64,000 nucleotides of DNA from positions 2,297,406 through 2,361,405 of the forward strand of contig CP070751.1 of the NCBI GenBank assembly GCA_020348445.1, in the 5' to 3' direction. The DNA comes from Thermoplasmata archaeon. Its GTDB lineage: Archaea > Thermoplasmatota > Thermoplasmata > GCA-020350865. Under the pieces are notes generated by a model. The model was not told the origin of the DNA. It saw nothing but the letters and a program-made list of their open reading frames with translations, and did not search any database. Made by a program: the position numbers and the translations under genes. The number at the start of each line of letters is the position of its first letter. Positions within the stretch are counted from its first letter, which is position 1. This document shows, piece by piece, positions 34,678 through 57,030 of this stretch.

Positions 34678-34724
34678 ATATGACAACAAATGTAGGGGTG
34701 AGGTGAAATAATATGCATATGCTT

Positions 34725-41041: not shown

Positions 41042-41515
41042 ATGAATAAAGGAGAGATAATAGAGGTGGACCCTCTAGATAAGGATGATACAATAGTCAT
41101 GGGTTTTGATAAGGTCTTTTATTCAAATAAATCATCATACATAGATGTATATTTTTCCAAATCCGCAATCATGATGGTACCAAGTATGTCATCTGGTTTT
41201 TCTGCCTTTGATTCAACAGAAGGTCATAAAACCAATAATGAAATGCAGTATCCTACTGTTATGTCAGAAATCTTTGACAGAATACAAAACCCAACATATT
41301 ATCAAAAGAAGGAGATTGCCAAGATAAAGCTGAAGAAATCGAAAATGATGACAATGGTAACTATAGAATTACACCCAGGAACTGAACTTTATGGCAAGCA
41401 AAAAAGACGAGGAGCCACATTAAGCTTCCTTGGAAAAGATTATGATATTGTTCACTTTGTATTGAATAGTTATTTCAAAGATAAATTGGTTTTATTATCA
41501 AAGAAAATGAGGTAG
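41042..41515 (+). CDS. Hypothetical protein
   Basis: 157-aa ORF with normal composition filling the gap; no family recognised. Confidence 0.6.
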   Translation: MNKGEIIEVDPLDKDDTIVMGFDKVFYSNKSSYIDVYFSKSAIMMVPSMSSGFSAFDSTEGHKTNNEMQYPTVMSEIFDRIQNPTYYQKKEIAKIKLKKSKMMTMVTIELHPGTELYGKQKRRGATLSFLGKDYDIVHFVLNSYFKDKLVLLSKKMR

Positions 41516-41546
41516 AACCTGCTGTTTATATTTTAATTCAGATTTA

Positions 41547-41592
41547 GAGGTTAGGGGATAACAGAGGTTGGGGTGAGGTAATAAAATATGCA
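41547..41592 (+). repeat. Partial repeat A (right half) plus GGGGTGAGGT...AATATGCAT tail
   Basis: GAGGTTAGGGGATAAC resembles GAGGTTAGGGGAAAC; the tail also occurs at ~34695-34720. Confidence 0.5.
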
Positions 41593-41743
41593 TGCAGGTT
41601 TTTGTAAGTCTCCAGTTTTAAATCAAGGTCAAAAGGATATAATTAAATGTTAAAAATATCTTCAATTTACTACAAAAAAATATTACCATTTTGAAAGAAA
41701 TAAATATTCATAATTCGTTCGCGATTTCGAACGGGGGGAGACT

Positions 41744-41835
41744 AAGGAGTAGGTGGAAAAAGATAAGCGAGGACTTGAATTTATGGAAGTCGTGGACTAA
41801 CTCTTATGGTCTTTTTATCTTTTTTCACTTTCCTT
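41744..41835 (+). promoter_or_regulatory. Conserved structured 5' leader (copy 2)
   Basis: GTGGAAAAAGATAA (41753-66) pairs over 14 positions with TTATCTTTTTTCAC (41815-28); inner GACTT/AAGTC hairpin. Confidence 0.55.
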
Positions 41836-41872
41836 TTGTTTAACCTTAAAGATAAATCAGGAGGGAGATGAT

Positions 41873-42832
41873 ATGAGATCTAAAAAGACAAGTATATTGT
41901 TGGTAGCAGTGATGTTCGTCACTGTGTTTGCTGTGGGAATACCCGAAGAGAGAAACGTAACTGCTGAAGGAACAGAAACCATGATCTTCGAGGATGATTT
42001 TGAAAGTTATGCTGTCGGCACGTTTCCATCTTCAGGTGGATGGGAACTTATATACAACGGAAAAGGTACTCAGTACCAGAAAGTAGTGGACACTGAAAGT
42101 GTTTCTGGCTCTCAATCTCTACAGCTCTGGGGCCGTCCAAGGTGGGCTGCAACTGCCCAAAAGGAGTTAACGTTTGAAAGTGAGGTAATAGGCTTCGAGG
42201 TATATATCAAGACTGGAAGTCATTCAGGGACAATCGAAAACACTGGTGTAGCGGCCTTCTATAACGAGGAGGCAGCTCCTTGGGGCTTGGGATTTGGCCT
42301 TGTACTTTTCCGCGATAATGGCGAAATCCATGCGGTACAAGGCTTTGGACCCAACACGACTTTTCTACAAACTTATGAACCTGACGTTTGGTATAAAGTC
42401 AAGGTGATCCTTGATAAAACTGTTGAGACATACGATGTTTGGATAGATGATGTGCAAGTGGCTCAAGATGTAATCATTTGGGACACTCATCTGATAGAGG
42501 GCATAAGAATTGGAAGTGGTCATAGTGGAATGTACAGTTTCTTCGATGATGTAAAGGTGTTTGAAGTAATCACTGAAAGCCCCCAGGAGGCAATTGAGGA
42601 TGTCATGGATGACATCGAAGAGATGAATTTACCAAAAGGACTCGAATGCAGCCTATTATCTAAATTGGAAAATGCAATCAAATCCTTGGACAAGGGTAAT
42701 GATAATGCTGCCATGAACAAAATTGAAGCCTTTATCAATGAGGTAGAAGCTCAGAGGGGAAAGAAGCTCACTGATGCCCAGGCTGATGAGTTGATTGCAG
42801 CTGCAGAGGAAATCTTGGCAATGATAAATTAG
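41873..42832 (+). CDS. Secreted protein: beta-sandwich (lectin-like) domain plus C-terminal FIMAH-like helical domain
   Basis: Same signal peptide start (MRSKKTSI) and C-terminal domain as 29764-31434, different middle ('FEDDFESY..G.FP...W', 'W..VKV.LD...YDVWID'). Confidence 0.85.
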   Translation: MRSKKTSILLVAVMFVTVFAVGIPEERNVTAEGTETMIFEDDFESYAVGTFPSSGGWELIYNGKGTQYQKVVDTESVSGSQSLQLWGRPRWAATAQKELTFESEVIGFEVYIKTGSHSGTIENTGVAAFYNEEAAPWGLGFGLVLFRDNGEIHAVQGFGPNTTFLQTYEPDVWYKVKVILDKTVETYDVWIDDVQVAQDVIIWDTHLIEGIRIGSGHSGMYSFFDDVKVFEVITESPQEAIEDVMDDIEEMNLPKGLECSLLSKLENAIKSLDKGNDNAAMNKIEAFINEVEAQRGKKLTDAQADELIAAAEEILAMIN

Positions 42833-42867
42833 AGCTAACCCTAGGTAATAACAAGTCACTCAAATGT

Positions 42868-42940
42868 GGGCGCACAAATTCGGGCGTGTCGGTGGATGGA
42901 GATGCCAGGGGGAACTGCGGGATGAGTTACTAGAGTGGAT
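42868..42940 (+). repeat. Intergenic repeat A copy (TTC loop type)
   Basis: GGGCGCACAAATTCGGGCGTGTCGGTGGATGGAGATGCCAGGGGGAAC. Confidence 0.9.
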
Positions 42941-42972
42941 GATGTGTAGTTGAAGGGAAATAGCTTTGGTTC

Positions 42973-43476
42973 CTACATTGGAACATAATCCACCAGAACC
43001 ACAGCCTCTCCCTCTACAACCGTCTCCCCATTTTGATTGATGCAGTTGGTTTTAAGGGTTACTATGGGTTTATTCTCCTTTATCTTCAGGACCTCTGCAA
43101 TGGCCGTAATTGTGTCTCCGATATATACGGGCTTTTTAAATGTAAGTGACTGGCTCAAATATATTGTCCCAGGACCTGGAAGTATAGTACCCAGCACACA
43201 GGAGATATAACCCGTGACGAGCATCCCGTGTGCAATACGCTTTTTAAACCGGCCTTTGGACGCATATACTTCATCAAAGTGGTAGGGGTTTGTATCGCCA
43301 GTGGCACCTGCAAAAAGCGCTATATCCGCATCTGTGACAGTACGTCTATAAGTGCAGGTGTCCCCGATTTCCAGGACATTCCAAGTTTGGGGATTGTCAA
43401 GATCTGATCTGTGTTTATCTGGGATTCGGATGGCCGGTTTACCGTCTATTATCTCCACCTCTGTCATACTCATCAC
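42973..43476 (-). CDS. MaoC-like (R)-specific enoyl-CoA hydratase
   Basis: 'FAGATGDTNPYHFD', 'RIAHGML', 'LPGPG.IYLSQSL.F..PV.IGDT', 'VVEGEA'; start may be ATG 43473 or 43467. Confidence 0.9.
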   Translation of the reverse strand: MMSMTEVEIIDGKPAIRIPDKHRSDLDNPQTWNVLEIGDTCTYRRTVTDADIALFAGATGDTNPYHFDEVYASKGRFKKRIAHGMLVTGYISCVLGTILPGPGTIYLSQSLTFKKPVYIGDTITAIAEVLKIKENKPIVTLKTNCINQNGETVVEGEAVVLVDYVPM

Positions 43477-43589
43477 CTATTATTACTCCCCTAATCCCGT
43501 ATAGGGATTTAAGGTTTTATTTTTGATTCGTCGATTTATTTGCTTGAGGTATTGATTTTGAGGGAGGGATATTGATTTTATCGTGGATC

Positions 43590-43660
43590 GGGGGCGCGCA
43601 AATTCGGGCGTGTCAGTGGATTGGGATGTTAGGGGAAACGGTGGAGGTTGGGATTGGAGT
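43590..43660 (+). repeat. Intergenic repeat A copy (TTC loop type)
   Basis: GGGGGCGCGCAAATTCGGGCGTGTCAGTGGATTGGGATGTTAGGGGAAACGGTGGAGGTTGG. Confidence 0.92.
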
Positions 43661-43737
43661 GAGGTGTGGAGGAGAATGGGGTTTGGCTTTTAATAAGCTC
43701 TAAAAAGAGTTTTGAGGAATATAAAATGATGGAAACA

Positions 43738-43759
43738 AATATATATGTGAAACCACATA
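43738..43759 (+). promoter_or_regulatory. TATA box plus inverted-repeat operator of the RHH/PIN pair
   Basis: AAATATATAT overlapping TATGTG-aaac-CACATA (43744-59), ~20 nt upstream of ATG 43779. Confidence 0.55.
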
Positions 43760-43778
43760 CTTATTTGTAGGTGATAAA

Positions 43779-44000
43779 ATGGGAAACATTACATTATCAC
43801 TCCCAGAGGACGTTCATGAAATAGTGAGGGCCCATAAAGAGATAAGATGGTCCGAGATTGCAAGAAGGGCTATTTCGGAGTATGCAAAGAAATTGGAATT
43901 GTTGGATACAATTGCATCGAAGAGTAAACTGACTGAAAAAGATGTTAAAGAGATCGATAAAGTTCTTAAACGTGCTATAGCAAAGCGGCATGGGATCTAA
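43779..44000 (+). CDS. vapB: Ribbon-helix-helix antitoxin (VapB-like)
   Basis: 'NITLSLPEDV....AHKEIRWSEIARRAI' RHH pattern directly upstream of a PIN gene. Confidence 0.8.
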   Translation: MGNITLSLPEDVHEIVRAHKEIRWSEIARRAISEYAKKLELLDTIASKSKLTEKDVKEIDKVLKRAIAKRHGI

Positions 44001-44002
44001 TC

Positions 44003-44404
44003 ATGCTTCTTGTCGTTGACACTAATATTATTATTTCGGGTCTGATTAAGGGTTCTGTTACAAGAGAAATCCTTCTTAGTGCAGATATTTCATTTGTTGT
44101 TCCCGAATGGGTTCATACAGAGATTAAGAAACATAAAAAGTTGATTACAAAGAAAGCAGGAATAGATCAAGATGAATTGAATAATTTCATTGAAGAGTTA
44201 TTTCAAATTGTTCAAACGATTCCATTCGATAAATACAAATCCTATATTAAAAAAGGATTAAATGTAATGAATGATATCGACAAGGATGATGCACCGTTTG
44301 CAGCAATTGCATTGGCACTTGATGCAGATGGTATATGGACCAATGACAAGGATTTTGAAAAGCAGGATGTTATCAAGGTTTGGAAAACCCAAAGATCTAA
44401 TTGA
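44003..44404 (+). CDS. vapC: PIN-domain toxin (VapC-like), possibly frameshifted at the extreme C-terminus
   Basis: 'LVVDTNIIIS', 'D.DDAPFAA.ALAL..DGIWTNDKDF'. Confidence 0.88.
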   Translation: MLLVVDTNIIISGLIKGSVTREILLSADISFVVPEWVHTEIKKHKKLITKKAGIDQDELNNFIEELFQIVQTIPFDKYKSYIKKGLNVMNDIDKDDAPFAAIALALDADGIWTNDKDFEKQDVIKVWKTQRSN

Positions 44405-44453
44405 GAAATTCACAAAATAGAGTTCCATTTTTTAGTTTCAGGGCTGGTTTTCA

Positions 44454-44580
44454 GGGCGTGCAAATTCGGGCGTGTCGGTGGAGGAATGGACAGCCAGGGG
44501 AAACGGTGGAGGTTGGTTACGAGAGTGGTTGGATTTTTAGATAATTGACCATCCTCATTTCAAACCCGGAAAAAGAGGGG
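44454..44580 (+). repeat. Intergenic repeat A copy (TTC loop type) with extension module C
   Basis: GGGCGTGCAAATTCGGGCGTGTCGGTGGAGGAATGGACAGCCAGGGGAAACGGTGGAGGTTGGTTACGAG; TGACCATCCTCATTTCAAACCC recurs as TGACCATCTTCATTTCAAATCC at ~61369. Confidence 0.92.
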
Positions 44581-44673
44581 TTCAGAATGGTGGATGGGGA
44601 GATAAATTTGGTAAGTTATAGATAAAACTATACCTTGAGAATATCGGTAAAAAGTTTATTAACTATGATATTC

Positions 44674-44689
44674 ATCTAGATATCTAGAT
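44674..44689. promoter_or_regulatory. Perfect 16-bp palindrome, likely autoregulatory operator
   Basis: ATCTAGATATCTAGAT between TATA-like TTTATTAA and ATG 44694. Confidence 0.6.
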
Positions 44690-44693
44690 TGAT

Positions 44694-44984
44694 ATGGTAA
44701 AAGATATTCCAGAAGAAATAGACTTTGGAGTAAAATGGAATGGTAAATATCTGTGACCATCAAAACACGCCATCTATGAGATGATAAACCTGGGTTATGA
44801 TTTATATGATGTGCTATCGATATTAGAAAATGGGTATGATTGTCGCAAAGGAAAACGAGCAAAAGGAACATTTGAAAAATGTATTAAAAAAGGGCGGAAG
44901 ATCATAAAAGTCGTTGTGGTAAGAGTTCATGCTTACGATATCAATGATGAGATTTGGTTGATAAAACATGTCGGAGGTGTATAA
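44694..44984 (+). pseudogene. DUF4258/RelE-like toxin gene with in-frame TGA at codon 21
   Basis: ATG 44694 MVKDIPEEIDFGVKWNGKYL*PSKHAIYEMINLG... is in frame with track ORF 44781-44984; 'SKHA..EM' and 'K.IKVVV.......WLI.HVG' fit DUF4258-like toxins. Confidence 0.65.
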
Positions 44985-44985
44985 A

Positions 44986-45306
44986 ATGCCCAAGAAGAAA
45001 GGCATGGAATGTGTCTGTGGTGAAATAGCAAAGGAGTCACACACAAATATCGAAGGATATAAGGTGAGATCCTGGAAATGTAAGAAATGCGGGGAAGAAT
45101 ACATCGATAGCAGTGATGCTGAGTTCGTTCTACTGGCAAGCAAGACCCGAAAAAACCCCATAAAGGCTAGAGTGGGTGTATTAGGAGAAAGTTATATAAT
45201 CCGTATACCCAAGGAAATAGCCGAAATAATGCATATCGCCAAGGGCAAAGTGGCAAAGATCACCTTAGCGGGTCCCAATGATATTCTGATAACTGTCGAA
45301 AGTTAA
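44986..45306 (+). CDS. Antitoxin-like protein: N-terminal zinc finger plus AbrB/MazE-like C-terminal domain
   Basis: SD GGAGGTG then ATG 44986; 'CVCG...WKCKKCGEEY' and 'GESYIIRIPKEIAE.M.I.KG'. Confidence 0.8.
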   Translation: MPKKKGMECVCGEIAKESHTNIEGYKVRSWKCKKCGEEYIDSSDAEFVLLASKTRKNPIKARVGVLGESYIIRIPKEIAEIMHIAKGKVAKITLAGPNDILITVES

Positions 45307-45359
45307 ATGGATTTCTTGGTGAAGAGCCTTATAACCAAATTCCCATCTCTTAGTCCACT

Positions 45360-45436
45360 GGGCGCGCAAAAAAGGGGCGTGTCTGTGGATTGTGAGATTA
45401 GGGGAAACTGGGGAGGTTGGTTACGGGTGAGGTTGA
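45360..45436 (+). repeat. Intergenic repeat A copy (AAG loop type) with upstream inverted arm
   Basis: GGGCGCGCAAAAAAGGGGCGTGTCTGTGGATTGTGAGATTAGGGGAAACTGGGGAGGTTGGTTACGG; 45332-45358 is complementary to the right arm. Confidence 0.92.
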
Positions 45437-45511
45437 CTTGTGGGTGAGCATATTAAGTGGTAAAAAAGGAATAAGAAGTTAGATTTTTAATTCATTTAAT
45501 GATTTTTTCTC

Positions 45512-45856
45512 TCAGGCACTAGCCTTCTCCACAATTACTCGTTGTCCATCCACCCAAATCTCTACTTCGTCTTTATTTGATAAATTCAATGCATTCGCAA
45601 TATCCTTAGGAATCCTGAGGATCAAACTTTTTCCATCAGAACTTAAAGTCCTGTGCAATGACAGGGATTTCGAAGAGCCGTGTAACCTTTCCAATATGTT
45701 ATAGAAATGTTCAGCCTGCTCTGTACTCATTGTAATATGTCCACAATTTGAGCATTTTAAAGCTGGAACATCGTGAACGGTGATCTTCTCTTCATCAATA
45801 TTGTAATCGATCTTAGTTTTCTTCATATTCTTTCCACATTTTGGGCATTTTGTCAT
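45512..45856 (-). CDS. YgiT/MqsA-type zinc finger plus AbrB-like antitoxin
   Basis: 'CPKCG...VHDVPALKCSNCG' and 'GKSLILRIPKDIA..L.L...DEVEI'. Confidence 0.85.
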   Translation of the reverse strand: MTKCPKCGKNMKKTKIDYNIDEEKITVHDVPALKCSNCGHITMSTEQAEHFYNILERLHGSSKSLSLHRTLSSDGKSLILRIPKDIANALNLSNKDEVEIWVDGQRVIVEKASA

Positions 45857-45860
45857 TGAT

Positions 45861-46136
45861 TCACCTCATTTTTCTTCTATATTTTCTTTTCTCGGAAGTG
45901 TTGCTGAATCTTGCAGAGGCGACCTCCCCGATTCCAGCTCTGCGATCAAAGAATACTGTGATGTATCCTCTCAGGGATTTGCCTATAGCCATATATCTAT
46001 CTTTTTTTACCTTTTCAAAGTATGTTTTGTTATGTTTCTGTTTTAGTACGCTTTCAACCTCCGAGGGACGTATTCCATGTTTGAAAAGTATTTTTTCAAC
46101 CACATCAGGAGTGACAAGTACGGTGTTTATCTTCAT
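45861..46136 (-). CDS. BrnT/DUF4258-like toxin
   Basis: 'EKI..KHGI...EVE.V', 'Y.AIG....YITVFF......SAR.....EKRKY'; upstream of the antitoxin; ATG 46136. Confidence 0.8.
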   Translation of the reverse strand: MKINTVLVTPDVVEKILFKHGIRPSEVESVLKQKHNKTYFEKVKKDRYMAIGKSLRGYITVFFDRRAGIGEVASARFSNTSEKRKYRRKMR

Positions 46137-46160
46137 TTTTTGCCTCTGCAAATAGTAGTA

Positions 46161-46215
46161 TATTCGTACGATTATTTGAACTTTACGGTAAAAACCTCAG
46201 AAAAGCGTACGAATA
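46161..46215. promoter_or_regulatory. 10-bp perfect inverted repeat spanning the TA promoter region
   Basis: TATTCGTACG (46161-70) and CGTACGAATA (46206-15). Confidence 0.55.
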
Positions 46216-46297
46216 ATTACTAAGGATATCTATATCAAATCTGTAAAATCAATAGCTTACACCCCGTCTAATTTATGATATATAATTTAGATCGTTG

Positions 46298-46390
46298 GGG
46301 TACGCAAAAAAGGGGCGTGTCGGTGGATTAGGAGGCCAGGGGAAACTGGGGAGGTTGGTTACGAGGGGGGTTGGATTTTTGGATGGTTGA
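46298..46390 (+). repeat. Intergenic repeat A copy (AAG loop type)
   Basis: GGGTACGCAAAAAAGGGGCGTGTCGGTGGATTAGGAGGCCAGGGGAAACTGGGGAGGTTGGTTACGAG. Confidence 0.92.
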
Positions 46391-46398
46391 TTTGGCAA

Positions 46399-46630
46399 TA
46401 ACGCTCGTATTTGGTATACCATTTGTGCGCGTTAACGCTCCCGATTGGTATACAATGTAACGCTCACAGTTGGTAAAGGATTTTGGGGTCAACGCTCATA
46501 TTTGGTATACCATCTGCGGGAGTTAGCGCTCATATTTCGTATAGAGCCAGTGGGTTGAGCTGATGATATTTTTTAAGGCTTTATACGATGCGTGAGCGGT
46601 GGGGGCGGTTTTTGCGGGGCAGAAGGGGTG
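46399..46630 (+). repeat. Repeat B: five-unit tandem array of (T/C)A(A/G)CGCTC(A/G)TATTT(G/C)GTATA plus module D
   Basis: Units start at 46399, 46433, 46458, 46490, 46524 (spacing 34, 25, 32, 34). Confidence 0.88.
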
Positions 46631-46708
46631 GGACCTTTGTGAATGTGAAAGGGATTTAACGAATAATTTATTATACATTCAATCGATATGAAAATGGAGG
46701 TGACCGGA

Positions 46709-46864
46709 TTGTTATTGCATTCTACTCAAGTCGAGGAGAAATTAAATAGGTTGCATGTTTGGATGGAAGAAGAGATAAGATCTGTTCATAATCGGATTGA
46801 GACCTTAGAAAATCGGGTCAGAACATTGGAGGGAGAAGTAAGAACCTTAAAGATGAAAAAGTAA
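46709..46864 (+). CDS. Small coiled-coil protein (51 aa, below track cutoff)
   Basis: SD GGAGGTGA then TTG; heptads 'IRSVHNRIETLENRVRTLEGEVRTLKMKK*'; in-frame ATG also at 46688. Confidence 0.5.
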   Translation: MLLHSTQVEEKLNRLHVWMEEEIRSVHNRIETLENRVRTLEGEVRTLKMKK

Positions 46865-47146
46865 TTGTTACCGGGATTAGAGGGGCAGAGCCATTTGTGA
46901 AATAAGATGTGAAGAAACACTAAATTCATAAATTTTACGGGATTAAAAGGATGGAATCTTTTGTAAGGTGGGAAATGAAAAACTCTAAGTTCTGATAGGA
47001 GAATATGGAGGTATGTTCTTTAAGTTAATTCCTAATAGATAAAATTTATTTTTATATAGAGACTTGAATGTCGGCCTATCTAAGTCCCAAAAACCTTAAA
47101 ATGGTTTAAATATGTACTTCTTAATGGAGGTTAACGGAGGTCTGAC

Positions 47147-47413
47147 ATGCCAATTGAAATAGATGAATTTAATAAAGGAAAACATGACCAGGAGGTACAA
47201 AAAGAAATACTGGACTTTCTAAGGGCGAATAGAACAAACGCCTTTACAGTAGAAGAAATTTTGGAAGGAATTGGACACCTAAAGAGTACTGATGATCTAC
47301 CTTTGATGCTTATGCAGTCTATAAGCTACTCCATAATTTTAGGACAATTAGTTAAAGATAGAAGAATAAAATCTAAAATAATCGATTATAAGAATTATTA
47401 TATGATTCAATAA
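47147..47413 (+). CDS. Small putative winged-helix protein
   Basis: SD GGAGGT; 'ILDFL..N...AFT.EEI', 'L.QLVKD..I.SK......YY'. Confidence 0.7.
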   Translation: MPIEIDEFNKGKHDQEVQKEILDFLRANRTNAFTVEEILEGIGHLKSTDDLPLMLMQSISYSIILGQLVKDRRIKSKIIDYKNYYMIQ

Positions 47414-47497
47414 ACATTGCCGAGATAATACAAATCAAATTTTCGAACATCGTGAAACGTATGTTTTTTTACATATCAATTTCTGGTTAGGACCAAC

Positions 47498-48364
47498 TCA
47501 TAACTTGCCCTTTTTCTTCTTTCCCATGTCCCTTACAACTGGATTTTTCTTGTTAACGTTGAACACGGTAAAGTCTGCTCCATGGCGGTCAGATTCGGTC
47601 TTGAGCCTTATCAGGTCTCTATCCACCAGCTGGCTGAATATGTCCTTTCTCTCAAGGTGACTCTTCTCTGGTAGGGCCTTGGCTAGCTTGTCAACCAGAA
47701 AGCCACTGAGTCTCACGCTGCCGAATTTTGGTCCATACTCCTTTTCAGCCTTAATAGCCGCTCTCAAAGCCTTCTTGGAGTTCTCATCAAGCTCGGGTCC
47801 AGTAGTTTTGTTCCTGGGCTTCTTTGGCCTTGCCTTCTTTTTTTTCTCCTCGTCACTTACGATCTCGTTGGTGTCTGGGTTAATGAACCAGTAGTTGTTC
47901 TTACCTACCAGCATCTTGATGTCGCCCGACAGGCATCGCTTGAAGGAGCAGAACACGATCCTCTTGCCCTTCTCATGCACCCGTTGTGCCACGGGCAGGT
48001 AGTCCCTATCCCCTGCTAGAACGATGAGTACATCGATATCGGGCCTGGTGAGCATGATCTCCTGGAGGCGTAGAGAGAGCTCGATATCCGCGCTGTTTTT
48101 ACCCACAGTAGATTTTATATGCGCCACCCTAACTCCCATAGTATACAGCTCATTGGGCACGTCCGGATACATGGACCAGTCCGCAATGGCCTCCCTGATT
48201 ATAGGCGTCAGCCCGAGCTCGTTCTCCACATGTAATAGTGCTTTGCCTATGATAAGGATGGTCTTTCCCTGAGCTTTGGATCTTAGGTAACCATAATCGT
48301 TGACCAGTGAGACGTAGATGTTATCGAAATCTATAAGCAATGCTGCTAATCCGTGTTCCATCAT
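47498..48364 (-). CDS. NYN domain (LabA/DUF88, PIN-like) protein with C-terminal helical domain
   Basis: 'LLIDFDNI', 'GKNSADIEL', 'LAGDRDYLP....HEKGKR'. Confidence 0.88.
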   Translation of the reverse strand: MMEHGLAALLIDFDNIYVSLVNDYGYLRSKAQGKTILIIGKALLHVENELGLTPIIREAIADWSMYPDVPNELYTMGVRVAHIKSTVGKNSADIELSLRLQEIMLTRPDIDVLIVLAGDRDYLPVAQRVHEKGKRIVFCSFKRCLSGDIKMLVGKNNYWFINPDTNEIVSDEEKKKKARPKKPRNKTTGPELDENSKKALRAAIKAEKEYGPKFGSVRLSGFLVDKLAKALPEKSHLERKDIFSQLVDRDLIRLKTESDRHGADFTVFNVNKKNPVVRDMGKKKKGKL

Positions 48365-48504
48365 TCTATCACTCTTCAAACTGGAGAATAAGTGATGGGT
48401 TACTTAAGGTTTAAGTCCGGGGTATTGCAGGGAAAAGATGGTTTAATATATTGAAGTAATAAAAAAAAATAGAGAAAAAAAACGAGGTTTAAAACCAACT
48501 CAGA

Positions 48505-49012: not shown

Positions 49013-49081
49013 AAGGGATAGAGAAAAATATACGGTCTTTCCATCAAAAGGTTTTTATTTAAGTATTTAAGTGATGGTTAC

Positions 49082-49654: not shown

Positions 49655-49659
49655 GTCAT
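49561..49659 (-). CDS. Putative 32-aa protein antisense to the 3' end of the Fic/Doc gene
   Basis: MTQGEPVWFEEEPSWYKDVMKRWKGTASIMPD*; TTTAAATA (reverse complement of 49684-91) about 25-30 nt upstream. Confidence 0.4.
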   Translation of the reverse strand: MTQGEPVWFEEEPSWYKDVMKRWKGTASIMPD

Positions 49660-49725
49660 CACATATTGTTATTTAGGAGGTGCTATTTAAATATTACTTG
49701 ATATTTTAAGAAATTGGTATTTATA

Positions 49726-49810
49726 GAGCGCGCAAAAAGGGGCGTGTCGGTGGATTGGGAGGCCAGGGGAAACGGTGGAGGTTAGTTATGAGAAAGGTTG
49801 GATTTTTGGA
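49726..49810 (+). repeat. Intergenic repeat A copy (AAG loop type)
   Basis: GAGCGCGCAAAAAGGGGCGTGTCGGTGGATTGGGAGGCCAGGGGAAACGGTGGAGGTTAGTTATGAG. Confidence 0.92.
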
Positions 49811-49895
49811 TTTGGAGGGTATATCTGCTTGATTTCAAATGGAAAGGAAGAACTTCTGAGATAAAAAGTGGAATATATTTTTGTATAATAGATCA

Positions 49896-50129
49896 TCATT
49901 TTAAATATTCAATAAACTCTTTTACAGACAAACCGGCATCCTTGATTATCTTACGCAACAATCCTGGCTTTATAGATTTATGCAGCGGAACAGTCACCGG
50001 TTTGTGAGAGGGATTATCAGGATCTTTAAGGCGTAAATGGCTGCCTTTTTGTCTAACTACTTTATACCCTAATTTTGTAAGAACCTTTACAACAGCTTCA
50101 CCAGATATTCTTGGTAACCTGTGGCTCAT
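49896..50129 (-). CDS. hicA: HicA family toxin (dsRBD-fold RNase)
   Basis: 'L.KLGY.VVRQKGSH..L......VTVP.H..IKPGLL..I..DAGL'. Confidence 0.93.
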   Translation of the reverse strand: MSHRLPRISGEAVVKVLTKLGYKVVRQKGSHLRLKDPDNPSHKPVTVPLHKSIKPGLLRKIIKDAGLSVKEFIEYLK

Positions 50130-50353
50130 ACGGCCACCGTAACCGTAGCTACCAGGGATTTTGACGGATCAGGGATTTTCTCTCCTTCGGCCTCCGCTTC
50201 TTCTATACAAAGGAGTATAGCCTCCTTTATATTTTCTAAGGCCTCTTCGATTGTTTCTCCCTGGCTATAGCAACCTTGAAACGAAGGGCATACCACAACA
50301 TAACCCCCGTCCTCGTCAGGTTCCAAAATAACCTTGTAGCCGTAAGTCTTCAT
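50126..50353 (-). CDS. hicB: HicB family antitoxin (short form without DNA-binding domain)
   Basis: 'YVV.CP...GC.SQGET.EEAL.NI.EAI.L'; stop overlaps hicA start. Confidence 0.93.
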   Translation of the reverse strand: MKTYGYKVILEPDEDGGYVVVCPSFQGCYSQGETIEEALENIKEAILLCIEEAEAEGEKIPDPSKSLVATVTVAV

Positions 50354-50612
50354 TTATCCACCATTTAAGCTTATTTTCTTCTTTCTTTATAAAACTACCG
50401 TTGTTATTGGACCAAGATCATAATTTATCATTTAAAAGTTGAAGGGTGAGAAGCGTGACCGCCACGTCCCCTTCGTGTGTTGGTTATACCAACGCATTGG
50501 TAATATACATTAACTAAAATATATAACTTCGGATAAATTTTATGTTTTCGATACATTAGAAATGAGGGCTAAAATACGTGCTAGAATTCAAATTCCGGTA
50601 AATTGCTTGATC

Positions 50613-50700
50613 GGGGCGCGCAAAAAGGGGCGTGTCGGTGGATTGAGAGATTAGGGAAAACGGTGGAGGGGGGGTTGCGGGAGTGGTTGGACTTTTGGGT
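50613..50700 (+). repeat. Intergenic repeat A copy (AAG loop type)
   Basis: GGGGCGCGCAAAAAGGGGCGTGTCGGTGGATTGAGAGATTAGGGAAAACGGTGGAGG. Confidence 0.92.
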
Positions 50701-50799
50701 ACGAGAAAGGGGGGGGTGAGGTGGTATTCTTTGTAAAGTAAAGATATATTGTTAAAAAAATCGAAAATCTTAAATCTGGCTACTGGAATTGCTACCTAT

Positions 50800-52833
50800 A
50801 TGAAAAGGAAGGTAGTTGTGGTTTGGATTAGTCTGGTGATGATATTTGGATTTGTTGTGATCGTGGTTGAGATTGCTCCAAATGTGAGGGCTGCCACCAC
50901 TCGTTATGTCGGGGGCAGCGGTGCTGGAAATCATTCTAAAATTCAATCCGGAATAAACGTAGCCAATCCCGGAGATACAGTTTATGTCTATAACGGTACT
51001 TATTATGAACATCCCGTGATCGAAAAATCGATTTATTTAATTGGCGAAGACAGAAATACCACAATAATCGAAGGGAGCGGAGTTGGCGATGTAGTATATG
51101 TTTATGCTGATGGGGTTACAGTGAGTGGATTTTTAATAAATAATAGTGGAAATTCAGGGCATCCAGTTTACGATTCAGGAATTAAATATAGAAATTCCCA
51201 AAACGGTTTTATCACAGGTAACATTGTTTCAAACTGTGCTTATGGCATTTTTCTCGAAGATTCAAACGGGATTCATATCTCCAAAAACGAAGCCATATAC
51301 AATGATTATGGAATATATTTTTATTGGGCCAACGATAACAGCATTATAAACAATGATGCTTTATTTAGCGTATCCCGCGGTATTGATATTGTAACATCCC
51401 ATTACAACGAAATCATAAACAACAATGCATCCTCAAATGGGGATATTGGTATCTCATTGTACAATTCAAATCACGTTAAAATTATGAATAACACCGCCTA
51501 TATGAACGATGACCATGGCATCCGGATACTCTATTCCGGCTGGGACAATATAATCAATAATACCATGGTAAATTGCGGGATATTTATCGCTGGGACTATT
51601 CTTGATGATTGGAATACCCATAATATTGATACTTCAAACACTGTAAATGGAAAACCAGTTTACTATTGGAAGAACCTGACAAGCGGGAAGATCCCGGCTT
51701 CTGCAGGTGAAGTAATTCTAGCCAACTGCAGCAATGTCATAATCGAGAACCAAGAACTCACTAATAGTTCAATTGGTATTAACTTGGGATTTTCCTCTAA
51801 CAACACTATCACCGAAAACAATGTCTCTTCACATAGCAGATATGGCATATACTTAAAAAATTCCAATGATAATGACATTAAAGGAAATAATGTCTTTAAC
51901 TATAACATGGATTCTATATATTTATACGATTCAAATAGGAACGATATCCTATGCAACGAAGTTTCTTATAACATCGAGGGTATCAGATGTTCCCTTTCTA
52001 ATGAAAATAACATAATTAATAACATAATTTCGAACAATGAAGAGGGCATTGTTTTAAGCTCATCAATTGATAACAATATCTATTACAACAGCTTCTTAAT
52101 CAATACGATTCAAGCTATTGATAATAATGGAAACGAGAACAAATGGGACAATGGCTATCCATTTGGTGGAAATTATTGGTCAAACTACAGTGGTGTAGAT
52201 AACTTCAATGGCCCAGATCAGGACATCCCTGGAAGTGATGGTATCGGGGATACCAATTATTCAATAGATTCGGATTCGGTTGATTTCTATCCCCTCATGG
52301 CTCCATACAAATCCCTTGGGAATTACACAACTCTAAAACAAGGCTGGAATCTGATTTCCATCCCAATAATCCAAGAGGAGCAGAACCTGATAAGGGTTCT
52401 CGGTTCTATTGATGGTTGGTATGATGCAGTTCAATTGTATGACATCACAGACACAAAAGATCTTTGGAAACATCGCAAAGTGGGCAAACCTTACGGAAAC
52501 GATCTATTGGAGTTAAACGAAACCATGGGTTTTTGGATTCATATTACATCCCCTGGAGACACGATTTTCTTCTATAACGGCACTAGGCCAACCAAGAACC
52601 AAACTATTACTCTCCACTCAGGGTGGAACATGGTAGGTTATCCCTCCCTTTCATACCACAATCGAACAGTTGGATTGAACAACCTCACATTCGGAGATCA
52701 TGTGGATGCAATCTGGTCATATGATTCTGCAACGCAAAGGTGGGAAAAGATGGGTGAATCAGATTATTTCAAAACAGGCAGGGGATATTATATTCACGCC
52801 AAGACCAAATGTGAGTGGGAAGTTCCATTGTGA
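50800..52833 (+). CDS. Secreted NosD/parallel beta-helix protein with C-terminal GWNLISIP module
   Basis: Start likely ATG 50800 (MKRKVVVV); 'IQ.GIN.A..GDTVYV..G.Y.E', 'N.VNGKPVYYWK', 'GGNYWS.Y.G.D'. Confidence 0.9.
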   Translation: MKRKVVVVWISLVMIFGFVVIVVEIAPNVRAATTRYVGGSGAGNHSKIQSGINVANPGDTVYVYNGTYYEHPVIEKSIYLIGEDRNTTIIEGSGVGDVVYVYADGVTVSGFLINNSGNSGHPVYDSGIKYRNSQNGFITGNIVSNCAYGIFLEDSNGIHISKNEAIYNDYGIYFYWANDNSIINNDALFSVSRGIDIVTSHYNEIINNNASSNGDIGISLYNSNHVKIMNNTAYMNDDHGIRILYSGWDNIINNTMVNCGIFIAGTILDDWNTHNIDTSNTVNGKPVYYWKNLTSGKIPASAGEVILANCSNVIIENQELTNSSIGINLGFSSNNTITENNVSSHSRYGIYLKNSNDNDIKGNNVFNYNMDSIYLYDSNRNDILCNEVSYNIEGIRCSLSNENNIINNIISNNEEGIVLSSSIDNNIYYNSFLINTIQAIDNNGNENKWDNGYPFGGNYWSNYSGVDNFNGPDQDIPGSDGIGDTNYSIDSDSVDFYPLMAPYKSLGNYTTLKQGWNLISIPIIQEEQNLIRVLGSIDGWYDAVQLYDITDTKDLWKHRKVGKPYGNDLLELNETMGFWIHITSPGDTIFFYNGTRPTKNQTITLHSGWNMVGYPSLSYHNRTVGLNNLTFGDHVDAIWSYDSATQRWEKMGESDYFKTGRGYYIHAKTKCEWEVPL

Positions 52834-52892
52834 TCCTATCGTTGTAAGCAAACACTCATAGATGGCATTCCGCGGGTAATGTAGTGGTTTCT

Positions 52893-52964
52893 GTGCACAG
52901 CAAAAGGAGTGGAGAGGAGGCGAGATAGTTAGGATTTGTATTTAAAGGAGGAAGCAAGGATTGG
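52893..52964 (+). repeat. Highly degenerate repeat A-family copy
   Basis: GCACAGCAAAAGGAGTGG...; 52932-64 GGATTTGTATTTAAAGGAGGAAGCAAGGATTGG matches 54344-76 GGATTTGGATTTGAAGGAAGAGGCTAGGATCGG, which follows a clear copy. Confidence 0.4.
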
Positions 52965-53012
52965 CCTTCGGCACAATTAGTGCATAGAACCATTTGACTT
53001 AAAAGGTTTCAG

Positions 53013-54071
53013 TTATCTTCTGTATATCAAATCCCTTTCTCCAAGGAAATCATCTAGCTCGGATTGAATTTCTCTAGCATGATTATAATGTTCAGAAGTA
53101 TACCCTATTGATACAAAAGCATATGTACCAATCCCCTCATCGTAAGGGTAGCGAGTTGAAATGTAATTTCCGTTTTTGAATATGTAATTGTTCACTGGTA
53201 TTGTAAACCACCCTTTTTTATCCCAGTTGTCCACCTTTTTCTGATATTCCTCTCCATGCTGTTTTAGAAACTCCTCAATGGTATCTATTGTGGTCTGATG
53301 GCCAACAGATTTCCATAAAACCCTTGATTCTGTGATTTTATCTTTTTTAAGACCACCTTTTAGATAATATGCCCCACCTAATAAAAGAAATCCTACCAAT
53401 AACAAGCCAAATACTATTGCTATAATGACAATGTTAAAAAATAACCATATTGAAAACACGAAAAAAAGTACAAAGATTACAATCGCACTATATCCCCCGT
53501 AAATCATTTGCCTCACGGTATTGTTTACCGCCATTTCCTTTTCTTCTCTTGATAATATAGGTGGATTCCAATCACCAACTAATCCTATGTAGTATGTCTC
53601 AGGAAATGTACTTGGCCAAAAGGATTTTTCGACACTGGTTAAAGTCGTTGAAGTCAGACCATATCCTGGCCTGTCCTCGGCCGGAATTATGCCTGAAGGC
53701 AGTTTTGATAGATATTCCACATGTTTTTCTCGCCTTTTTTCTCTGGCAAAATACGTAAAAGAGGCCACGATAAAACTTAATATCATCGTACCGAACATTG
53801 TTAAAATTGTAAATCCATAATCTCCCAATAAAGGAATAATGATAACAAATGGGATAAACAGGATTCCCATTAATAATGAAGTATAAATCAATGCGTCATA
53901 GGTGTTTTTTATGGTTGTGTCACAAACAGGGCATGTGCCCATTCTTGTAATGCACTCTAAGCATATATATTTCTCACAATTTGGACAATAGCGATTGACC
54001 CTCAACCATTCACTTTTATTGAAAGACTTGCCACATTCACCACATCTTCTATAATCAACTTTTTTCTCCAT
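53013..54071 (-). CDS. Membrane protein with N-terminal Cys-rich zinc-binding domain
   Basis: CGEC...CPNC...CLEC...CPVC followed by about four TM segments. Confidence 0.8.
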   Translation of the reverse strand: MEKKVDYRRCGECGKSFNKSEWLRVNRYCPNCEKYICLECITRMGTCPVCDTTIKNTYDALIYTSLLMGILFIPFVIIIPLLGDYGFTILTMFGTMILSFIVASFTYFAREKRREKHVEYLSKLPSGIIPAEDRPGYGLTSTTLTSVEKSFWPSTFPETYYIGLVGDWNPPILSREEKEMAVNNTVRQMIYGGYSAIVIFVLFFVFSIWLFFNIVIIAIVFGLLLVGFLLLGGAYYLKGGLKKDKITESRVLWKSVGHQTTIDTIEEFLKQHGEEYQKKVDNWDKKGWFTIPVNNYIFKNGNYISTRYPYDEGIGTYAFVSIGYTSEHYNHAREIQSELDDFLGERDLIYRR

Positions 54072-54248
54072 AGTTCATTCCCAATCCTCGTTAGTTAATC
54101 GAAATTGTCATCCATTTATATTGATGCTATACCTGGTCTCAAATCTCATTATTATAAATAAGACCATTGGAGTTTATTCAAATACAGAATTAAATATCTT
54201 TTGGAGGATTGTTCAGGGAGTTCAGTTCCAATCCAATTTTCGAGTCTA

Positions 54249-54320
54249 GGGGGCGCGCAAATTCGGGCGTGTCGGTGGAGGAATAGACAGCCAGGGGAAA
54301 CCATGGAGGTTGGTTACGAG
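54249..54320 (+). repeat. Intergenic repeat A copy (TTC loop type)
   Basis: GGGGGCGCGCAAATTCGGGCGTGTCGGTGGAGGAATAGACAGCCAGGGGAAACCATGGAGGTTGGTTACGAG. Confidence 0.92.
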
Positions 54321-54432
54321 GAGGAGTAGGCTGAGCCAATATGGGATTTGGATTTGAAGGAAGAGGCTAGGATCGGAGTGAAATAAAAAAAAATCGAAAA
54401 TGTTATATCTGGCCATAATAATAACTTACTTT

Positions 54433-56679
54433 ATGAATAGGAAGATAGCCGTGGTTTGGCTCTGTACAATTATAACGTTTAGCGCTGTTGTAATCTTAGT
54501 TGAGATAGCACCAATTGTTGAGGCTCCCACAATAATCTACGTCGACGATGAGCCTGGAGAAGGACCTGGCAATCCAAAAGAGAACTACACGAGCATTCAG
54601 GATGCAATAAATGCCAGTAGTGATGGAGATACCGTGTTTGTTTATAACGGAACATATTATGAGAATGTGGTCGTGAATAAAACAATAAATCTGACTGGTG
54701 AGGATAGAAATAAAACGATTATCGATGGTGGAGCAAAAGATAGTACCGTTGTAATAACGGTTACTTGGGTAAACTTGACAGGTTTTATGATTACTGGAAG
54801 TGGTATTTCTTGGGGAATTGCTGGAATCGGGTTAAGCAATGTTCAGAATGTCAGAATCTTTGAAAACAATATCTCCTATAATAATTATCATGGCATATTC
54901 ATTTACCAATCTCAACATAGCAATATTACAAATAATATTATCCTCTCGAATGAAGGCTATGGGATTTCTATGGAGTCATCCTCAAACATCAAAATCACAA
55001 ATAACTATTTTATCCAGGATGGGATTGAAATATTTGGATATGAATTATCACATTATAATTCTCATGATATACCCATAGACAATATGGTAAATGGAATTCC
55101 TTTGCATTATTATAAGAATTGTAAGGATATTGATATCGATGGAATTATAACCGGGCAACTAATTCTTGCTAATTGTTCAAATGTCCAATTAAGGAATTCA
55201 AAAATTAACAACACAGATATAGGAATAGGGATATTATATTCTACGAATGTTACATTAATAAATAACAATCTTGATTCGAACCATGAATTTGGTATCTTTC
55301 TTAGCAGGTCATCAAATAGTTTGGTTATGTGCAACAATGTATCGAACAATGGGGAAAGTGGTATCGGACTGGGGCATTCTTCATATAATAACATAACGGG
55401 CAATTATGTGTTTGACAATAATGATGGTATCACATTGGGGGGAGGATCAAACAATTACATAATAGACAATAATATTACGAGAAGTGGAAATGGTATACGA
55501 CTAGGTTCATCATCAAATAACAATATAATAAAAGGTAATAACTTATCGGAAACGGGAATATATTTCATAGGAGTATCAAACAATTACGTGATAAAGAATC
55601 GCATCAGGTCTGGAGGTTACGGCCTCAGTCTATATGTCTCTCCAGACAATAAAATAATTGGAAACGATGTTTCATTTTGTGGATCTGATGGTCTTCGACT
55701 TGGCTTGGATTCGATGGGTAACATAATATTAAACAACAATATTTGTTCCAATGGCAACGATGGCATCTATGTAATTGAACCCAACAACCACATTGAAAAC
55801 AACAATATTAGTTCGAACATAAGGTACGGAATTTTTATTGAGTCTACGTCAAATAACTACATTACAGGTAATACAATTACAAACAATAATTATGGTTTAC
55901 GGATCCAAAAATCGTCAAATAATCATATTTATCATAATAACATCATCGACAACACAAACCAGGCATACGATATGGGTACGAACTTTTGGAACGACACTTA
56001 TCCCTCAGGCGGCAATTACTGGTCCGATTACACGGGCATAGATCTCAATTCCACAGCTGCTCAAAATGTTCCTCCACCTGATGGTATTGGAGACACTCCC
56101 TATACAGATATTCTTGGTGGATCAGGAGCTCAAGACTACTATCCATTGATGCATCCCTATATCAATGGTACAATTCTTTTTTATGGGTGGAATCTCATCT
56201 CTATCCCCTTGATTCAATCTAATACGAATTTGGGTATGGTTTTAAATTCTATCGAAGGTTCATATGATGCCGTGCAGTGGTATAACGTGAGCGATAATTT
56301 TGATCCATGGAAACATAATAGTACTAAAAAGCCATTTCATTTGAACGATTTGGAAAATATCTACCACACCAATGGGTTTTGGATTCATATAACGGAGCCT
56401 GATGGAATTTTCTTTGAATTTGATGGATCTCGCCCTATCAGAAACCAGACAATCGCTCTACATCCTGGTTGGAACATAGCGGGCTACCCTTCCCTCTCGA
56501 GTTACAACAGAACATATGGTTTGAACAACCTCACATTCGGGGATCATGTGGATGCAATCTGGACCTATGATTCTGGAACGCAAAAATGGGAAAAGATGGG
56601 TGAATCAGATTATTTTAAGATAGGCAGGGGATATTACATTCATGCCAAGACCAAATGTGAGTGGGAAGTTCCATTGTGA
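54433..56679 (+). CDS. Secreted NosD/parallel beta-helix protein with C-terminal GWNLISIP module
   Basis: Start likely ATG 54433 (MNRKIAVV); same architecture and promoter-like upstream DNA as 50800-52833. Confidence 0.9.
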   Translation: MNRKIAVVWLCTIITFSAVVILVEIAPIVEAPTIIYVDDEPGEGPGNPKENYTSIQDAINASSDGDTVFVYNGTYYENVVVNKTINLTGEDRNKTIIDGGAKDSTVVITVTWVNLTGFMITGSGISWGIAGIGLSNVQNVRIFENNISYNNYHGIFIYQSQHSNITNNIILSNEGYGISMESSSNIKITNNYFIQDGIEIFGYELSHYNSHDIPIDNMVNGIPLHYYKNCKDIDIDGIITGQLILANCSNVQLRNSKINNTDIGIGILYSTNVTLINNNLDSNHEFGIFLSRSSNSLVMCNNVSNNGESGIGLGHSSYNNITGNYVFDNNDGITLGGGSNNYIIDNNITRSGNGIRLGSSSNNNIIKGNNLSETGIYFIGVSNNYVIKNRIRSGGYGLSLYVSPDNKIIGNDVSFCGSDGLRLGLDSMGNIILNNNICSNGNDGIYVIEPNNHIENNNISSNIRYGIFIESTSNNYITGNTITNNNYGLRIQKSSNNHIYHNNIIDNTNQAYDMGTNFWNDTYPSGGNYWSDYTGIDLNSTAAQNVPPPDGIGDTPYTDILGGSGAQDYYPLMHPYINGTILFYGWNLISIPLIQSNTNLGMVLNSIEGSYDAVQWYNVSDNFDPWKHNSTKKPFHLNDLENIYHTNGFWIHITEPDGIFFEFDGSRPIRNQTIALHPGWNIAGYPSLSSYNRTYGLNNLTFGDHVDAIWTYDSGTQKWEKMGESDYFKIGRGYYIHAKTKCEWEVPL

Positions 56680-56728
56680 GATCTTTTTATATAAAATAGT
56701 GTCCAATTTCCAGCACACTACTCTGGCC

Positions 56729-56940
56729 GGGCCGCGCAAAAAGGGGCGTGTCGGTGGTTGGATATAAACTAGGGGAAACGGTGGAAGTGGGTTACGGGAG
56801 TGGTTGGATTTTTGGATAGTTGATCAGGCGTAGCGCTCGTATTTCGTATAGAGCCAGTGGGTAGAACTGACGATATTTTTTAGGAGTTTATACGATCCGT
56901 GAGAGGTAGAGGTGGTTTTCGGGGCCCAGGAAAAGGGGAT
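56729..56940 (+). repeat. Repeat A copy followed by one repeat B unit (56831) and module D
   Basis: GGGCCGCGCAAAAAGGGGCGTGTCGGTGG...AGGGGAAACGGTGGAAGTGGGTTACGG...TAGCGCTCGTATTTCGTATAGAGCCAGTGGG...TTTATACGATCCGTGAG. Confidence 0.9.
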
Positions 56941-57030
56941 GAGGGAACTTATGGAGCCCGGGATTGAGTAGAAAATGAAGAGGATGGGGATTGAAAAAAT
57001 ATATTATTATTATATTCAATATGGAAAATT

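Follow-up and report, generated by a model that had tools for sequence, protein, structure and literature searches.

How does an archaeal genome come to hold a run of unrelated genes, each set off from the next by a short repeat that always points the same way? The question is raised by a 64,000-nt stretch of DNA from an uncultured sediment archaeon of the Thermoplasmata (contig CP070751.1; hereafter the window), in which the region from 42.8 to 56.9 kb is punctuated by copies of a non-coding repeat, named here repeat A. An initial annotation had likened this region to an integron, with exchangeable gene cassettes lying between the repeats. Comparison with sister species shows that cassettes have been exchanged and reordered within the genus, and the array looks like a gene-shuffling platform not previously described. 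The reading we lean towards, with a confidence that stops a little short of even, is that the region is one of at least two cassette arrays whose genes are exchanged by recombination within the repeats and other junction elements.

Repeat A and the genes between its copies

The window lies in G000, a 5.16-Mb Thermoplasmata metagenome-assembled genome (MAG) that is 82% complete and in which 353 contigs have been concatenated with runs of 100 N; its "one-contig" genome consists of joined contigs and is not a closed chromosome. The window forms the final 64 kb of an 88-kb contig, with window position 64000 as the contig end, and the DNA past this position belongs to a different contig and is not a true neighbour. 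Five genomes of one genus were compared (G000 and four sister species), all of them fragmented MAGs.

Repeat A was found by a direct-repeat search of the window and then followed over the whole assembly with a profile hidden Markov model (HMM; nhmmer) built from eleven copies. The profile has 21 matches in the 5.16-Mb assembly, located on two contigs only: the window contains 13 of them, and a second array the other 8. A covariance model recovers the identical set. A directly oriented repeat of about 85 bp, as initially described, is thereby confirmed, and the assembly-wide scan finds it confined to the two arrays and not spread over the core genome. The eleven strong window copies start at 16327, 42866, 43589, 44451, 45357, 46296, 48937, 49724, 50611, 54248 and 56727 (E 1e-13 to 1e-21), and two weaker ones at 31460 (E 6e-4) and 34636 (5' half only, E 1e-6). 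A degenerate copy that had been noted at 52893 has no detectable similarity to repeat A, and the partial copy noted at 41547 resembles only the variable 3' arm seen at 34636 and is not recovered by the profile.

All copies on a given contig share one orientation; on the window contig 13 of 13 lie on the plus strand (two-sided binomial p ~2e-4). The fixed polarity that had been remarked upon therefore holds within each contig, but the plus strand common to both G000 arrays carries no meaning because the assembly is made of concatenated contigs. The copies are 85-98 nt long and G-rich on the plus strand, with 39-45 G versus 8-11 C per 90 nt. Their conserved part opens abruptly with GGGCGCGCAAAAAGGGGCGTGTCGGTGG and extends through GGGGAAACGGTGGAGG, about 60 nt in total, beyond which each copy takes up one of some three different 3' arms. 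The boundary of the repeat is sharp on the 5' side and ragged on the 3' side. The sequence upstream is unrelated from copy to copy, except for a loose AT-rich motif, seen by eye, at a distance of 20-30 nt from the repeat. Subfamilies of A are mixed between the two arrays, the mean core identity being 0.795 within and 0.790 between arrays.

Every copy is intergenic. Neighbouring copies are spaced 0.7-3.6 kb apart and, in agreement with the initial annotation, enclose one gene or gene pair in either orientation, the exception being the interval 46296-48937 with at least three units. Where the preceding gene is on the plus strand, A starts 25-70 nt past its stop codon. The features of the array are given below in window coordinates; the B, C and E repeats mentioned there are further families, described in the next section.

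16327 to 16424, plus strand, repeat A, outlying full copy (nhmmer E 2.6e-15), about 30 nt past the stop of the open reading frame (ORF) 15672-16298
31460 to 31546, plus strand, repeat A, degenerate (nhmmer E 6e-4, covariance model E 1.2e-5), after the lectin-like gene 29764-31434
34636 to 34678, plus strand, repeat A, 5' half (nhmmer E 1.4e-6, model positions 3-45), after the C25 peptidase gene 31665-34613
42866 to 42954, plus strand, repeat A, opening copy of the dense array (nhmmer E 9e-16)
42953 to 43579, minus strand, MaoC-dehydratase cassette (Pfam); whole block in G003 (89%), part in G001 (86%)
43589 to 43686, plus strand, repeat A (nhmmer E 1e-15)
43779 to 44404, plus strand, VapB-like and PIN (VapC) cassette (Pfam PIN_2 E 4e-29); homologous block in G003:C216 (85%)
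44451 to 44548, plus strand, repeat A (nhmmer E 1.3e-20)
44598 to 45348, unstranded, small-ORF cassette with a weak MazE/AbrB-type match; 91% block in G003:C92, with B iterons directly after it there
45357 to 45453, plus strand, repeat A (nhmmer E 5e-19)
45458 to 46220, minus strand, cassette of a BrnT toxin and a Zn-ribbon/MazE-type antitoxin (Pfam); blocks in G003:C337 (89%) and G002:C81 (83%)
46296 to 46390, plus strand, repeat A, continuous with B iterons (nhmmer E 8e-19)
46398 to 46555, plus strand, B iterons, a tandem run of four ~34-nt units that all contain a palindrome centred on GTATAC
47384 to 48436, minus strand, NYN-domain cassette (Pfam NYN); 92% block in G002:C108, where family E repeats flank it
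48446 to 48876, minus strand, cold-shock-domain cassette; paralogous block at window 14659-15094 (83%), homologue in G003:C100 (85%)
48937 to 49010, plus strand, repeat A (nhmmer E 5e-14)
49082 to 49654, plus strand, cassette protein of 190 aa (Pfam: weak HEPN_AbiA_CTD only, E 7e-5)
49724 to 49811, plus strand, repeat A (nhmmer E 9.5e-21)
49896 to 50353, minus strand, HicA-HicB cassette (Pfam E 6e-20 and 5e-15)
50611 to 50705, plus strand, repeat A (nhmmer E 1e-17)
50749 to 52833, plus strand, NosD/beta-helix surface protein (Pfam), no repeat copy after it
53013 to 54071, minus strand, ORF of 352 aa, function not assigned, weak PrgI match
54248 to 54330, plus strand, repeat A (nhmmer E 1.7e-16)
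54400 to 56679, plus strand, NosD/beta-helix surface protein (Pfam)
56727 to 56861, plus strand, repeat A followed by one B unit, the last A copy before the contig end at 64000
61174 to 61500, plus strand, B iterons (61174-61330), then a family C-like unit (61369-61500), without A

The content also includes a lectin/FIMAH protein, and toxin-antitoxin (TA) and nuclease genes are abundant. Most of the gene names first given to the array stand (MaoC, PIN/VapC, BrnT with its Zn-ribbon/MazE-type partner, NYN, the cold-shock domain, HicAB and two NosD/beta-helix proteins), but the gene at 49082-49654, previously called Fic, has no Fic match in Pfam. In exact-protein look-ups one 1137-nt Logan contig was listed for the PIN protein, and the MaoC protein gave no match.

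A second A array is located at G000:C1:4623670-4648739, with eight co-oriented copies around genes for HicB, an MNT-HEPN pair, NosD proteins, a lectin, an HNH protein and ATPases. HicBA is bracketed there by A copies that are identical over 56 nt and then differ in their 3' arms. This array stops 4 kb short of its own contig's end, so that both arrays lie near contig ends. One of its ATPases, of the AAA_14 + DUF4143 type, has B iterons on both sides. An ATPase of this type (~400-420 aa) recurs as a unit beside A or B modules at six or more loci in four genomes, among them L001:8633-9877, L004:338-1597, L027:6369-7568 and L016:12345-13580. NosD-type genes show much stronger conservation over their last ~80 codons than elsewhere, with up to 91% between contigs (window 52583-52833 and 56429-56679; L002:8237-8482 and 11700-11790). 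In the second array a bare NosD 3' stub is followed by A and B, and some breakpoints therefore lie inside genes and not at repeats.

Cassettes and junction elements across the genus

Five or six units of the window recur as single blocks in G001 to G003, at 83-92% nucleotide identity (blastn). These are the MaoC block (window 42953-43579; 89% in G003), the VapB block (43709-43958; 85% in G003), the small TA-like block (44598-45348; 91% in G003), the BrnT pair (45458-46220; 89% in G003 and 83% in G002), the NYN block (47384-48436; 92% in G002) and the cold-shock protein (csp) block (48458-48864; 85% in G003). The baseline in the same genomes is lower, with 78-80% in the rpoB region and 68-82% in syntenic flanking genes. 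Because the identity of the blocks exceeds both, the cassettes must have been exchanged after the species split.

The order and the neighbours of the units differ between species. The window reads A-MaoC-A-VapBC-A-TA-A-BrnT/MqsA-A, while contig G003:C337, read in repeat orientation, is arranged as C-BrnT/MqsA-C-MNT/HEPN-like pair-(A+C)-MaoC-C. MaoC and the BrnT pair, which have two other units between them in the window, thus stand in the opposite order in G003:C337. In each of the five cases that allow a comparison, the block has the same orientation relative to the polarity of the repeats around it, and junction alignments show that block homology between species stops 0-85 nt from the repeats. 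The view of the array as a set of exchangeable, integron-like cassettes is upheld by these comparisons; the accompanying suggestion, that A itself may be the recombination site, goes further than they do.

In the sister species identical cassettes are bounded by other co-oriented repeats, namely 34-nt iterons (family B), family C and family E. Family B consists of tandem 34-nt iterons with the core AACGCTCATATTTCGTATAC and is present in four of the five genomes. Each unit contains a 10-12-nt palindrome around GTATAC whose symmetric positions co-vary by eye (TCGTATACGA or TGGTATACCA), so that the dyad is preserved, and this palindrome has the look of a binding site for a dimeric protein. Further B iterons are located at L001:8187-8345, 9992-10114 and 12459-12617, and the iteron pattern has no match in the viral collection. 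Family C is ~115 nt long and has 11 copies in the G003 MAG, where it flanks cassettes and sometimes directly follows an A-like copy. Family E (~90-150 nt) is co-oriented and intergenic, and flanks the NYN cassette in G002, with copies in L014 (G002:C108) at 1596, 3179, 3981, 10150 and 11456. The 5' part of family E holds a CCAATTTTCGG-like motif, a degenerate version of which is seen 20-30 nt upstream of several window A copies.

The families also occur joined. Repeat A passes directly into B at 46296-46555 and 56727-56861, and A, B and C form one composite of fixed order at 46296-46680 and in the second array. Matches to A, B and C were found on 20 further contigs in four genomes, with one shared orientation per contig. 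Across the genus the repeats form a set of interchangeable modules (A, B, C and E).

On its left side the array adjoins DNA that is shared with the sister species G001. The FG-GAP protein and M28 peptidase genes (36.2-40.8 kb), as well as genes upstream of the window, are syntenic with G001, and in this sense the window contig is chromosomal. The G001 contig breaks 332 nt beyond the M28 gene, the point at which the array begins in G000. About 40 kb of G000 (from about -4 kb to 36 kb in window coordinates) corresponds to ~3 kb (about 3.3 kb) in G001. This large variable island adjoining the array (window 1-36200 and ~4 kb upstream) carries giant surface-protein genes, including NosD/beta-helix, C25 peptidase-PKD and purple acid phosphatase fusions. 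The GC content of the array is 38.3%, as compared to 41.4% for the whole window.

Repeat A beside known elements

Integrons, sedentary chromosomal integrons and clusters of attC sites without an integrase (CALINs) offer the closest likeness. As in our arrays, unrelated units, mostly single genes or TA pairs, lie between directly oriented repeats of a fairly uniform type particular to the species, and cassettes are common to related genomes and reordered between them. Species-specific, fairly homogeneous repeats are also typical of the integron arrays of Vibrio. The differences are substantial. Integrons have an attC hairpin, R''/R' boxes, IntI and an attC that travels with its cassette, whereas here the genes stand in both orientations with their own upstream regions, and A, B, C and E look unrelated and are yet interchangeable. 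DNA folds of both strands of A range from -2.7 to -5.3 kcal/mol (z -0.6 to -1.6 against shuffles) and no attC-type hairpin was found. The interval 41001-57500 contains no complementary R'' (RYYYAAC)/R' (GTTRRRY) pair 49-149 nt apart, against a shuffle mean of 0.32. The initial statement that the repeat is not attC agrees with both results.

The same annotation reported no recombinase gene in the window, and profile searches of the window proteins found none; PF00589 has no match there. Elsewhere in the MAG, which is 82% complete and has both arrays near contig ends, we found two weak tyrosine-recombinase fragments, neither of them on an array contig. A recombinase gene co-occurring with the repeat was not seen either, as the one serine recombinase, three IS110-type and five Y1 transposase genes of the MAG are all on other contigs. 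No reverse transcriptase and no Cas1 were found in the MAG. Archaeal integrons have been described with canonical attC sites and CALINs, built of bacterial attC/IntI parts (PMC9668308). The integron papers that our full-text searches brought up, this one included, contain no description of non-hairpin, repeat-punctuated cassette arrays in Thermoplasmata.

The pdif modules of Acinetobacter plasmids are similar in that discrete TA or accessory modules, bounded by short sites, occur in varied contexts. Their recombination depends on XerC/D, encoded elsewhere, and the 28-bp pdif site has two 11-bp inverted arms around a 6-bp spacer and alternates in orientation. Here the elements are 85-150 nt long, without a clear dyad and all direct. 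The 5' part of A has 7-nt arms that match at 5 of 7 positions around an 8-nt spacer (two variants), and no confident Xer gene was detected.

Clustered regularly interspaced short palindromic repeats (CRISPR) likewise place polar, co-oriented repeats around heterogeneous inserts, and the perfect 56-nt duplication that brackets HicBA in the second array is reminiscent of them. In a CRISPR array the repeats measure 23-50 nt and the spacers 25-70 nt, and acquisition depends on cas1, whereas here the repeats are 85-98 nt long, the units are genes spaced at 0.7-3.6 kb, the MAG has no Cas1 match and adjacent repeats are not more alike than distant ones.

Repetitive extragenic palindromes (REP), the mosaic elements that they form (BIME) and miniature inverted-repeat transposable elements (MITEs) are short, non-coding, intergenic and multi-copy, as is A. 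REP and BIME elements are built from short palindromes, which frequently stand as inverted pairs, and are accompanied by a gene for RAYT, a Y1 transposase. Repeat A has no palindrome, no inverted arms or terminal inverted repeats, and its copies, on two contigs only, are not dispersed over the genome. The five Y1 genes lie off the array contigs. Of the marks of a MITE or other non-autonomous transposon, namely terminal inverted repeats, target-site duplication and dispersed copies, A lacks the first and the last, and its ragged 3' end blurs the place where a target-site duplication would lie.

Other identities were also considered for the repeat. A shared coding function was rejected, as the copies differ by indels whose lengths are not divisible by three and have no ORF in common (by eye). 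An origin recognition box (ORB) or Orc1 site, which A brings to mind by a resemblance to archaeal origin boxes, was rejected as well, with no A-like motif (at most 5 mismatches) within ~4.5 kb of either of the two orc1/cdc6 genes, bar one match at chance level; the motif occurs in the two arrays only. The possibility that A is the reverse complement of the 5' end of a nuclease gene, introduced below, gave one forced alignment only, and a profile of that region matches no A copy. At the RNA level, a possible 7-bp stem with two G-U pairs can be drawn on the plus strand only, with 94.7% of the cells paired; we rejected it as an RNA hairpin, since it has no compensatory change and shuffled controls score equally. 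RNA folds of the repeat are no better than shuffles (z -1.6 to +1.2), an Rfam scan of the whole window gave no family at the gathering threshold, a tRNA/tmRNA scan of it was also empty, and no conserved promoter was seen upstream of A copies. Searches with the A core in public genome, metagenome and viral collections matched only the known sister-species contig and, otherwise, 24-31-nt stretches of the core; these core-only matches are most likely due to chance.

A candidate nuclease and the rival explanations

Clustering of the ORFs within 3 kb of any repeat module led to a candidate enzyme, encoded outside the window. A protein of ~322 aa adjoins B iterons in G000, G001 and G003. It has weak, sub-cutoff matches to the IS1/IS1595-type zinc-binding domain, the IS1 transposase N-terminus, Cas4 and PDDEXK_1; a protein atlas puts it among the PD-(D/E)XK families, and no solved relative was found by sequence. 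In ten aligned members from three genera the four zinc-ribbon cysteines, GHID, DYKP and Q...Y are invariant (D...DYK and QxxxY motifs). We therefore regard it as a candidate with a predicted IS1/IS1595-type zinc ribbon/helix-turn-helix (HTH) N-terminus and a predicted Cas4/RecB-like PD-(D/E)XK nuclease C-terminus. PD-(D/E)XK proteins tied to DNA rearrangement include Cas4, TnsA of Tn7 and the Rpn/YhgA recombination-promoting nucleases. The candidate resembles these, and the IS1 InsA-type zinc ribbon, through the sub-cutoff domain matches and the retained D...DYK and QxxxY motifs. We may be dealing with a new enzyme of DNA rearrangement or with an insertion sequence (IS)-like gene.

Each of the five genomes has 3-12 matches to the candidate gene, which is also found in a few other Thermoplasmata. 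The copies in G000 include L026:10826-11794 (G000:C1:1324880-1325845) and G000:C1:1321215-1322204, 4953546-4954505 and 2110913-2111857. The gene often lies at contig ends, and many "truncated" copies are merely cut by them. B iterons start 30-190 nt upstream of the gene start and point away from it, so that the gene is divergent. Beyond these iterons lies a unit that has the exact 17-mer GGGGGTATGTGTGGTGG in common with family C of G003; the link rests on this 17-mer, as the G003-based family C profile matches the units beside the G000 nuclease genes weakly (E 0.6-3.6). On G002:C36 and G003:C92 full and 5'-truncated copies of the gene alternate with TA pairs. The succession of a divergent enzyme gene, iterons and cassettes set apart by repeats is similar to the layout of intI, attI and cassettes.

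Our proposal would bring these observations together as follows. Self-contained accessory units (TA pairs, small enzymes, nucleases and surface proteins), with their own flanking non-coding DNA, sit between co-oriented, non-palindromic, G-rich junction elements, of which repeat A is the main one in G000, with B iterons, family C and family E filling the same role in sister species. Cassettes would be gained, lost and reordered through recombination inside these elements. Exchange would likely be break-stimulated or homology-guided, between direct repeats of 60-150 nt, and not of the attC hairpin type. The elements are long, have no dyad symmetry and are homogeneous within a species, and no conservative recombinase was found; all of this suits nuclease-stimulated or homology-guided exchange better than attC-type recombination. 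For the enzyme, which would act in trans, the multi-copy protein with the IS1-type zinc ribbon/HTH and Cas4/RecB-like PD-(D/E)XK domains is the best candidate. It is also possible, if rather unlikely, that the system is a novel Thermoplasmata gene-capture platform more strictly parallel to an integron, with the A, C and E elements (100-150 nt) and the 34-nt B units in the place of attC and attI and the zinc-ribbon/PD-(D/E)XK candidate in that of the integrase.

Several observations weigh against recombination within the junction elements. The sample comprises five species, each represented by a fragmented MAG, and neither array is far from a contig end. Adjacent A copies resemble each other no more closely than random pairs do (p = 0.55), which is evidence against duplication of the repeat at each insertion. 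The family of repeats that flanks a given cassette differs between species, and the repeat site therefore does not travel with the cassette, unlike attC. We were unable to map a crossover point, and the cassette ends have no short motif in common. The two paralogous csp cassettes give no empty-site picture, as their homology stops ~57 nt before A and never resumes. Neither the window nor the second A array holds a recombinase or nuclease candidate, whole or in fragments, and for this reason the link of repeat A to the candidate nuclease is indirect, through the A-B-C composites.

The last point bears equally on another explanation, in which A, B and C are leftovers of a mobile, IS-like unit that comprises the nuclease gene with the iterons upstream of it and that has inserted again and again, always in one orientation, into other copies of itself or into a favoured site; the cassettes would then be bystanders or cargo caught among nested, truncated copies, and A an end or scar and not a dedicated capture site. 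The multi-copy nuclease gene with its frequent position at contig ends, its upstream region made up of B and a C-like unit, the fixed A-B-C composite at 46296-46680 and in the second array, internal nuclease copies beside cassettes that lack their 5' part, and the one sharp and one ragged edge of A would all suit such a unit. However, the homology among the nuclease-gene copies spans only the upstream region and the gene, with no second end, A lacks terminal inverted repeats, contig ends account for many of the "truncated" copies, and neither A array of G000 contains the gene. We consider this explanation unlikely. That A is itself a form of punctuation, either a one-way terminator, an insulator or a plus-strand small RNA that shields neighbouring genes while the cassettes are exchanged by unrelated means, is doubtful and less probable again. 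The plus-strand stem and the start of A shortly after the stop codons of plus-strand genes are suggestive of it, and many copies finish in a run of five T, which is an archaeal termination signal. Yet the stem and the folds do not rise above shuffled controls, there is no upstream promoter or Rfam match, A is restricted to two arrays and not to a gene class, and its polarity is independent of gene direction, with half of the copies on the promoter side of minus-strand genes.

Two further explanations were weighed. The repeats could be passive remnants of segmental duplication, copied as flanks of genes and without a role of their own. Repeat A has indeed been duplicated along with the 3' end of the upstream gene in two cases (31207-31546 with 42611-42954, and 56630-56850 with the second array), but most copies follow unrelated genes and their similarity begins abruptly at the repeat. 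Moreover, a 60-nt core that is ~80% conserved over 19 copies amid unrelated flanks needs selection or active spread. We rate passive duplication as very improbable. A canonical integron or CALIN with strongly diverged attC sites receives almost no credence from us. Unrelated small genes rich in TA pairs are indeed what chromosomal and archaeal integrons contain (PMC9668308). Against this stand the absence of a single-strand hairpin on either strand and of an R''/R' pair in 41001-57500, the mixed gene orientation, the upstream regions that the cassettes carry, and the location of the only tyrosine-recombinase fragments of the assembly, both weak, off the array contigs.

To our knowledge, integrons are the sole well-understood platform that stores and shuffles single-gene cassettes. 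If recombination within the junction elements is the correct reading, cassette platforms would have evolved more than once, here with the logic of an integron but with neither hairpin sites nor a tyrosine recombinase. A new DNA-rearranging enzyme, which may be nuclease-based, would then be indicated as well, and the movement of TA pairs and surface-protein genes among uncultured sediment archaea would be explained. Even if the repeats act as passive homology, our data show recent gene flow in cassette-sized units within this genus.

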